Sequence record: OZ365185.1
Source: a phage
Reading direction: 5' to 3' (one strand)
DNA length: 47,066 nucleotides
Each line of letters starts with the position of its first letter. Position 1 is the first letter of the stretch. Positions 45,001 to 47,066 of this stretch are shown one piece after another. A program made the position numbers.

Positions 45001-47066
45001 CGAGCTGCAATCTGTATTGATGATACTTTGTCGATCAGCGATGCTCTCTCAGAACTAAATCATTTCATTAACCGGCACGCAGCCAATACGAAATATTTAA
45101 AAGTCTGGGGTAACGGGGCCACCTTCGACAACGTAATTTTACGTGGAGCTTATGAGCGAGCAGGACAAATCTGCCCGTGGGCATACTGGAATGACCACGA
45201 TGTACGCACGATCGTTACGCTTGGGCGTTCTATCGGATTCGACCCCAAAATGGACATGCCTTTCGATGGCGAACGGCACAACGCCCTGGCCGATGCCCGT
45301 CATCAGGCAAAATATGTTTCCGCTATCTGGCAGAAATTAATTCCTGCCACCAGCACAGAATTATGATTTTCCCGGGTGCAGCCGGTTTTGATGGAGAAAA
45401 TTATGAACACCTTGTTTTTACTGATGGCTGAATTCAATACCCCTAACATTGAACTCTCAGCAGTTAGCCAAAAGTACTTTGGCATGAGTCCAGCCACGGC
45501 AGAAGCAAAAGCAAACGCTTGTAAGTTGCCCGTTCCAACATATCGCATCGGCACATCACAAAAAGCAAAACGTTGCATCAATATTCAGGATCTTGCGGAA
45601 TACATAGACAAAAGACGAGAAGAAGGACGAGCTGAGTGGGAAAAGGTCAGAACGGATAAACAAAAATATAACTAAACTAAGACCATGAATAACCCGTGTA
45701 TATACGGGTTATTTTTCTTTATCGCCATCTTTTCTAGATTTGAACAATCCACTAACAACGAAGCCAACCAAACCAACAATACTAATTGTACTTGTTCCCA
45801 GTAATGCAACGATTGCTTCAACTGGCGGCTTTCCTTCATGAGCAATAAGAAATGATACAAACATTCCGGCTACAAATAAGCACCAACACGACATAAACCA
45901 AACCGTGAATGAGGCCATTTTTGTCCGAAGCTCATTGTCTATTTCTTTACCAGTTGCGTCAGCTATCTTATCCCGTACTTGTGACTTGAGCATATCAAGC
46001 TGAGCTTGAAGACTGTCCATTCTGTTCTGCTGCATAAACTCATGCAATGCACCAGTATTAGAACCAAACTCTTCTGCCTCCAGAATAGCCTTATTTTCTG
46101 AAGAAGAATCATCATCGCGCTCATGATTAGACGGCTCAAATGCGGATTCAAAAGCCTGCTCTTGACTGTCAGTAGAGTTTAAGGATGCTTCAGAGCGACC
46201 ATTTTCAACACCTGCGGCCGCTCCGATCAGTTTATAGATATCTGAATTATGAGACATGTCATCCCTGAATATTACTTTTTCAGAGGCCCTGACATTGCTG
46301 TCGGTTATTCAATAAATCATGATAATAAGCCTTGATCGCATCATTTGAGATGATCGACGAGCCAATACCATTATAAGCTTGTGACCAAGGCGTACCTGGC
46401 ATATGAGTTAGAGTTGATAACTCAATTCCATTTTTCGAGCCGTAAAACTTATAAACAGCCCCTATAATGCTCTCTGCTTGCGGATCCATAGTAACGATGC
46501 CACCAAAAGGAGCTACTGCTACATTCGTAACAGGTTTATTCCCATAGTCTTTGAAAGCATCGTACATTCCAGGAATAACTGGACCGTACTTCCACGCGGA
46601 GACACATTCATTGAGCAAAGGCTTACCTGTTAATGCTAAATAGTAACCATGGGCAATATAAGTAAGCTTCTGAAGTTGCATGTGGGTCAGAGGATTATGA
46701 TGTTGGTTTCCCAACGTTATGAATTTATTGGCTATTTGTACCGGACTGTACATAACCACCCTCCTCATTACACTGAATGTGCAAACAGTATCATCACTGT
46801 TATCTCAACCTAACACGAACAAAAAAGTTTTGGAAGATTGCAAGAGCAATTCACTGTGTTTATAACCAGCAAATGACTGTACATATACACAGGTTACAAA
46901 TTGGTGGCGAATTATACCTGCAGAAGTTGCGATGTCAACAAAGCGACCATCACAGTGTTTTGCATCTCACACTGTTATGACAAAAAATCTTTTGATAGGT
47001 TCCCAATAGGCTCCCACAAAGTGTATAACTACTTGTTTTTCAAAAACGGTACATCCTATCGAGCAT

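Follow-up and report, generated by a model that had tools for sequence, protein, structure and literature searches.

Probable SOS control of a PanA/PanT toxin-antitoxin operon at the dusA-proximal end of a Shiga toxin 2-converting lambdoid prophage

Our analysis of 47,066 nucleotides of phage DNA (sequence record OZ365185.1, here called the window, with positions counted from its first letter) centres on two minus-strand genes at its right end, panA and panT, which probably form an SOS-derepressed type II toxin-antitoxin operon of the PanAT 'Esc. col.' kind, the accessory cargo of a Shiga toxin 2 (Stx2)-converting lambdoid prophage at its dusA-proximal end. The DNA is 100% identical to that of Escherichia phage 1720a-02 (KF030445.1), a window position being the record position minus 181. 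Judged by their sequences, the two proteins are those of a published and experimentally validated PanA/PanT type II pair, so that as a discovery the pair itself would matter little and its novelty is low; the residual novelty would lie in the plausible SOS control of its native promoter. The architecture of that promoter, a 12/12 match to the consensus followed by tandem LexA boxes, is apparently unreported.

The gene pair and its published counterpart

Both open reading frames (ORFs) are present where the preliminary description of this DNA, made from the sequence alone, had placed them: panA at 46280..46753 (157 aa) and panT at 45709..46257 (182 aa), both on the minus strand, separated by a 22-nt gap and transcribed toward the plus-strand early-left operon, with which they are convergent. 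Each gene has a separate Shine-Dalgarno sequence, with an AGGGA ribosome-binding site, and the Shine-Dalgarno region of panA (GAGGAGGGTGG, 46757..46767, minus strand), read directly from the sequence, is kept in all aligned homologues. The Panacea/DUF4065 domain that had been suspected in the upstream product was recovered by hidden Markov model search, which matched PanA to Pfam PF13274 (SocA_Panacea) with E=6.2e-18 and 66.2 bits, against a gathering cutoff of 25.7, over residues 32-128. PanA, which is 100% identical to WP_000287252.1, is a stand-alone Panacea-domain antitoxin with no helix-turn-helix (HTH) or other N-terminal domain. An HTH extension is carried by 343 other PanAs, and because this PanA has none, the antitoxin is not expected to regulate its own operon, a role that would fall to a host repressor. 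Residues G57-P58-V59, within WKYGPVIPG, form the GPV motif that is functionally important in PanA proteins (Kurata et al., PMC8832971).

PanT is 100% identical to WP_000019185.1. It matches phrog_13343, a family of unknown function, and gave no Pfam match above cutoff and no NCBIfam or PADLOC family; among the Pfam and PHROG matches of the module's proteins there was no holin family, the PHROG matches being of unknown function. Sequence searches of the PDB with PanA and with a PanT profile returned chance-level matches only. The acidic N-terminal part and the two C-terminal hydrophobic helices that had been described for the downstream product are both seen, the former in the charge computation (net charge -12 over residues 1-113) and the latter in the hydropathy profile (segments at about 116-140 and 145-172). 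In an AlphaFold2 model based on 40 homologues, of moderate confidence only (predicted local distance difference test, pLDDT, 59), residues 16-53 are disordered and a long helix spans 54-139, joined through an HEGKPP loop to a second helix (146-177); where a coiled coil had been described, this long helix is all that is predicted. The glycine-rich second transmembrane helix (ALLGTSTISIVGLVGFVVSGLFK) is almost invariant across the 40 homologues, as is the juxtamembrane G-x-x-IDN-x-LR motif among those aligned, and the acidic N-terminus is highly variable. This combination fits an oligomerising membrane effector with an N-terminal handle specific for its partner, the handle being suggested by analogy with the Bartonella PanT:PanA interface.

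Both accessions appear in Table 1 of Kurata et al. (2022, PNAS 119:e2102212119; PMC8832971) as 'PanA Esc. col.-PanT Esc. col.', from Shiga toxin-producing E. coli (STEC) O31, with the mode of action 'Membrane', and genes 96% identical to them are already annotated as PanA antitoxin and PanT toxin in phage PhiR47_1 (PV340566.1); the toxin-antitoxin identity was therefore already known, and the suggestion that the pairing might be undescribed does not survive. A literature search for phage PhiR47_1 found nothing. The accompanying proposal of a toxin-antitoxin pair with a membrane-disrupting toxin is vindicated by that work on the identical proteins, where PanT was toxic and co-expressed PanA restored growth (Fig. 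2B, Fig. 5; PMC8832971). The toxin, a member of cluster T3, stops transcription, translation and replication alike, as do HokB or carbonyl cyanide m-chlorophenyl hydrazone (CCCP), and causes strong DiSC3(5) depolarisation together with SYTOX Green permeability, read as the formation of large pores, so that panT encodes a membrane-depolarising, pore-forming toxin (PMC8832971). In a 10x10 neutralisation matrix the toxin is countered by its cognate PanA alone, an evolved Vibrio PanA with two substitutions gives partial protection, and pull-downs on several PanAT pairs indicate direct complex formation as the mode of neutralisation (PMC8832971). The genes were expressed there from PBAD and Ptac; a native promoter, LexA and SOS have 0 occurrences in that paper, and the context of dusA or of an Stx2 phage is also unmentioned. 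That RefSeq and PHROGs label the toxin a 'hypothetical protein' is merely because annotation trails the literature.

The cargo position that had been proposed for the module stands. On one side is the gene of a PrtN-type excisionase (xis, 45376..45675, plus strand), the last of the early-left operon, and on the other the attachment-site region at the prophage right end (46997..47066), the final ~70 nt of the window, which are common to other dusA-integrating phages (mEp460, PhiR40_1 and others) and which are the only stretch that several database matches cover. The same DNA is found at 99.9% identity in E. coli STEC1588, with a truncated dusA fragment directly after the module. This fragment and the sharing of the attachment region with dusA phages place the module in the slot between xis and the attachment end. 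A minus-strand ORF of 319 aa at 29001..29960 matched six Stx2 motifs, and we take it to be Stx2A-like; motifs of the Stx2 B subunit occur near 28790-28841, and the region 28700..29960 would thus encode Stx2. The PanAT module also rides on phiSTEC1575-Stx2k, another Stx2-converting phage.

Promoter, LexA boxes and their conservation

The pair is preceded by a sigma-70 promoter, P_panAT (46938..46911, minus strand), that matches the consensus TTGACA-16 nt-TATAAT at 12/12 positions; both this promoter and the second of the two LexA boxes behind it had escaped the preliminary description. LexA box 1 (CTGTACATATACACAG, 46877..46892), a perfect CTGT-N8-ACAG with 15/20 matches to the 20-mer consensus, lies at exactly the position first reported and is suitably placed to regulate the pair, starting 18 nt past the -10 element; relative to the predicted transcription start it occupies about +12 to +27. 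LexA box 2 (46854..46869; minus strand CTGGTTATAAACACAG) lies 23 nt further along the minus strand, with a spacer of 7 nt between the two boxes, and has 1 mismatch, an intact CTG/CAG and 14/20 matches to the 20-mer. The window has 8 copies of the pattern CTGT-N8-ACAG, where 0.41 would be expected. A weak third LexA-like site (CTGAATGTGCAAACAG, 46773..46788; 14/20) is not kept in the Enterobacter homologue described below and is probably non-functional.

The palindrome AACAGT-N6-ACTGTT does exist, in the 5' untranslated region (UTR) of panA, at 46784..46801 and not, as first given, at 46791..46808, which is 7 nt off; it is the sole exact ACAGT-N6-ACTGT in the window. Though conserved, it is not a LexA box. 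A role as CI/Cro operator was rejected, since the operators of the immunity region are of an unrelated TTGCGC/GCGCAA type, and an explanation by RNA structure is unsupported, the fold of the panA 5' UTR having no unusual stability against shuffled sequences (z=-0.14). Its ACAGT half-site recurs in an inverted repeat, ACAGTGT-N10-ACACTGT, at 46952..46975, just 5' of the P_panAT -35 element and adjoining the shared attachment region; this repeat is polymorphic among E. coli haplotypes and could be a regulator site or an arm site for the integrase (Int) or integration host factor (IHF).

Homologues were taken from the protein database, from the contigs encoding them and from viral contigs, and 23 distinct loci were compared; a scan of genome contigs (one genome per species) that used the PanT sequence alone gave no relative. 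PanT homologues, aligned at 31-95% identity, were found in Escherichia, Enterobacter, Klebsiella, Salmonella, Serratia, Pantoea, Providencia and Cronobacter, and the loci compared come from the first seven of these and from viral contigs. In every one (23/23, at least 7 genera) panA lies immediately upstream of the panT homologue. A LexA box was counted when it had CTG/CAG intact and at least 14/20 matches, was co-oriented and lay within 1 kb upstream of panA, and by this count 21 of the 23 loci have one, with 24 boxes in 21.7 kb of upstream sequence against 0 in the other 114 kb of these loci.

Variation within and between species points to the same elements. Among seven E. coli-type haplotypes, ~12 sites vary, 0 of them in the palindrome, the hexamers or either box and several in the 7-nt spacer between the boxes; boxes 1 and 2 are invariant. 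In an Enterobacter hormaechei homologue (locus L004), whose PanT is 67% identical, the -35 TTGAC, the -10 with its TATAATTCG context and the ribosome-binding site are retained, box 1 is conserved in position while the intervening sequence has diverged, and the arms and most of the loop of the palindrome are kept between diverged flanks. Salmonella and the viral contig L052 have an independent LexA box at -33 of panA. No LexA box was found upstream of the xis-attP cargo of the sibling dusA phages mEp460 and PhiR40_1; the idea that the box belongs to the slot was therefore rejected, and in the lambdoid context the box would have come with PanAT.

Most loci that are not of the E. coli type are P2/186-like prophages with PanAT between gpA and the portal gene. 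The interval gpA-gpQ is a documented defence hotspot of P2-like prophages, and the contents listed for it include 'DUF4065 + hypothetical' (Table S5, Rousset 2022). Upstream of panA, several of these prophages (L012, 2283..2420; L014, 2311..2420; L053; L064-L070) share a block TATAAT(T/C)CGCGCGC, with ATTGAC(G/A)...TAGTCT/TAAGTT about 20 nt past it, and the GC-rich discriminator hints at stringent-type control. Directly after the post-gpA LexA box there is an ORF of 60-66 aa (L012, 1649..1837; L017, 2074..2274; L053, 1826..2008), which has no Pfam match on record and of which the copies in L017 and L053 have the motif ACVQFIAEVSLIANCKPxDLKLALTxIADL in common; this ORF may encode a small regulator induced by SOS, or an antirepressor. 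PanAT neighbours a type I restriction-modification system (N6_Mtase + Methylase_S) in Providencia (L010, 3866..6495) and a reverse transcriptase gene (RVT_1) in an Enterobacter P2-like hotspot (L012, 3964..5724), both of which are defence-island-like company.

Proposed mechanism and rival explanations

In the mechanism that we favour, LexA bound to the two tandem boxes just past the -10 element would keep the strong sigma-70 promoter P_panAT nearly shut in the lysogen, transcriptional control being outsourced to the host, as PanA has no DNA-binding domain. DNA damage, through RecA*-driven cleavage of LexA, would derepress panAT, and the same signal would cleave the S24-type CI of the phage. 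A single transcript would give both proteins, with PanA neutralising PanT; loss or displacement of PanA would then let PanT perforate the inner membrane, neutralisation and perforation having both been shown for these proteins (PMC8832971). PanT would insert by its C-terminal helical hairpin with the near-invariant glycine-rich second helix, and, if the Bartonella PanT:PanA model is a guide, PanA would grip the acidic N-terminal part, which is variable. The wider proposal, that in this family of membrane-toxin PanAT systems control by LexA and SOS is conserved and selected, and supplies the natural trigger, seems to us evenly balanced between holding and failing.

An SOS-type native promoter, with LexA boxes in most lineages, yields a testable idea of the natural conditions of PanT production. 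If it is correct, DNA damage, such as that caused by quinolones in STEC, would co-induce a pore-forming toxin-antitoxin with the Stx2 prophage, and in the Stx2 phages 1720a-02 and phiSTEC1575-Stx2k antibiotics that induce SOS would switch on PanAT with Shiga toxin. Such co-induction could affect lysis, toxin release, the exclusion of competing phages and the survival of non-induced cells, and the palindrome AACAGT-N6-ACTGTT would be a second control element. As to its function, our best guess is that panAT serves the prophage as an SOS-linked module for suicide or exclusion (by abortive infection or superinfection exclusion), a role favoured by the defence hotspot and by the restriction-modification and retron neighbourhood; after it we would rank, in this order, a TisB-like dormancy induced by damage, an accessory function in lysis and plain addiction.

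Several observations weigh against this interpretation. LexA box 1 comes after the predicted start instead of covering the hexamers; the left half of box 2 is lost in Enterobacter L004; the Providencia loci and L056 have no LexA box; and the conserved palindrome at 46784..46801 could be the real operator. In the P2/186-like prophages it is the post-gpA operon (the small ORF, then dinI), not PanAT, that has the LexA box at its head; PanAT has a conserved box-less TATAAT-CGCGCGC promoter of its own and would come under SOS control only by read-through. Position thus explains part of the association, and much of the 21/23 in these prophages. Several P2-like loci, however, have lost the small ORF and dinI yet retain the SOS promoter, ~230-320 nt from panA, which argues against a purely positional association, as does the box-less cargo of the sibling phages in the dusA slot. 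In the searchable literature we found no paper linking PanAT or DUF4065 toxin-antitoxin pairs to LexA or SOS. We also found no published defence phenotype for the PanAT pair, and PADLOC-DB v2 has no matching defence model, its matches being at chance level only (E about 0.01-0.02).

Some of these facts would suit a module whose LexA boxes do nothing, being chance occurrences or relics of neighbouring SOS cassettes, and whose genes are expressed constitutively as an addiction-type system that stabilises the prophage: the P2-like homologues use a box-less promoter, Providencia has no box at all, neither box 2 nor box 3 is conserved in Enterobacter, and a location beside xis and att suits stabilisation. 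We consider this unlikely, since box 1 is perfect and keeps its position in Enterobacter at 67% protein identity, the boxes at -33 in Salmonella and L052 are independent, the upstream regions have 24 boxes where 114 kb of flanks have 0, and E. coli polymorphism avoids the boxes. Somewhat less probable again is that PanT serves the phage as an SOS-timed, holin-like accessory of lysis and release, with PanA as its antiholin-like brake, and has nothing to do with defence or dormancy. The two transmembrane helices and large pores of PanT, the single signal that would induce both PanAT and prophage, and the presence of a Phage_holin_3_1 gene near the Enterobacter L004 pair would all be expected of such an accessory; the 113-aa acidic cytoplasmic N-terminus of PanT is nevertheless unlike holins, Pfam gives no holin match, and the pair lies at the attachment end, distant from the lysis cassette, is absent from sibling phages and is also found in the defence hotspot of P2-like prophages.

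LexA-boxed genes at prophage ends are often antirepressors, as is Tum of coliphage 186 or those of Gifsy, and the P2/186-like relatives have PanAT after the post-gpA SOS operon. That the present module is an induction switch of this sort rather than a toxin-antitoxin is highly improbable, and we rejected it: the CI of this phage carries its own S24 autocleavage part, so that no antirepressor is needed, and toxicity and neutralisation were shown experimentally for identical proteins (PMC8832971).

Neighbouring features and relation to known systems

The early-left operon that faces the SOS-boxed pair includes, besides xis, a 3'-5' exonuclease gene (44791..45366, plus strand). Between the convergent xis and panT, a 12-bp stem-loop (45687..45714) overlaps the panT stop codon; it is a terminator of the plus-strand operon, and possibly a bidirectional one. 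The xis-attP slot is filled differently in the sibling phages, with a two-gene minus-strand cargo annotated as YafO toxin/YafM antitoxin in PhiR40_1 (L074, 1369..2359) and another, of two hypothetical proteins, in mEp460 (L073, 1511..2414), and it looks like an exchange site for toxin-antitoxin-like modules. At the opposite end of the prophage, directly behind the integrase gene (193..1290, plus strand), two tandem LexA boxes (1293..1308, CTGTTTATCCATACAG; 1321..1336, CTGTATACAAACACAG) are followed by a gene for an 82-aa DinI-like protein (1352..1600; NCBIfam DinI, E=1e-20), so that with the boxes before panA there are SOS-boxed accessory genes at both prophage ends. The CI-like repressor (39141..39833, plus strand) consists of an HTH plus an S24/UmuD-like part. 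The best LexA box of the window (TACTGTATGTAAAAACAGTA, 39350..39369; 17/20 to the consensus) is inside its coding sequence, in the linker between these two parts, and could act as a roadblock or in downstream control.

At the protein level the module does not differ from PanAT 'Esc. col.' (Kurata 2022), the proteins being identical and the gene order and spacing the same. It resembles PanAT 'Bar. api.' (Bartonella choladocola PanT D11:PanA, cluster T12) in the charged N-terminus, the C-terminal transmembrane region, the pores and the stand-alone Panacea domain, and in that system the Panacea domain is predicted to contact the N-terminal region and the pre-transmembrane helix of the toxin, an interface probed by mutagenesis (PMC10440598). 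However, T12 does not cluster with T3 by sequence, and homology is uncertain. The SocA antitoxin of the type VI system SocAB of Caulobacter belongs to the same DUF4065/Panacea fold family, but it serves ClpXP as an adaptor for SocB, a toxin that binds the DnaN sliding clamp, whereas PanT has no relationship to SocB and its antitoxin neutralises it directly. PanA scored 97 bits (E=1e-27) against the NCBIfam SocA model NF047745, under the equivalog cutoff of 190, and its partner has no family match, so that the pair was not assigned to SocAB.

Toxins under SOS control are known in E. coli K-12, among them the type I systems TisB/IstR-1 and DinQ/AgrB and the yafNO genes in the dinB operon. As proposed here for PanT, these toxins are driven by a LexA-repressed promoter, and TisB and DinQ collapse the membrane potential, leading to dormancy or death. 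Unlike PanT, a protein of 182 aa neutralised by direct binding of PanA, TisB and DinQ are peptides of ~30 aa under the control of antisense RNAs, and YafO is a ribosome-dependent RNase. Two boxes in tandem that directly follow the -10 element of a very strong promoter are reminiscent of the control regions of colicin E1 and of lexA itself. The likeness to the cea-imm-kil operon of ColE1 extends to the coupling of a pore-former with a protective protein on a mobile element, although the sequences are unrelated and colicins are exported to kill neighbouring cells, whereas PanT acts inside the cell that produces it.

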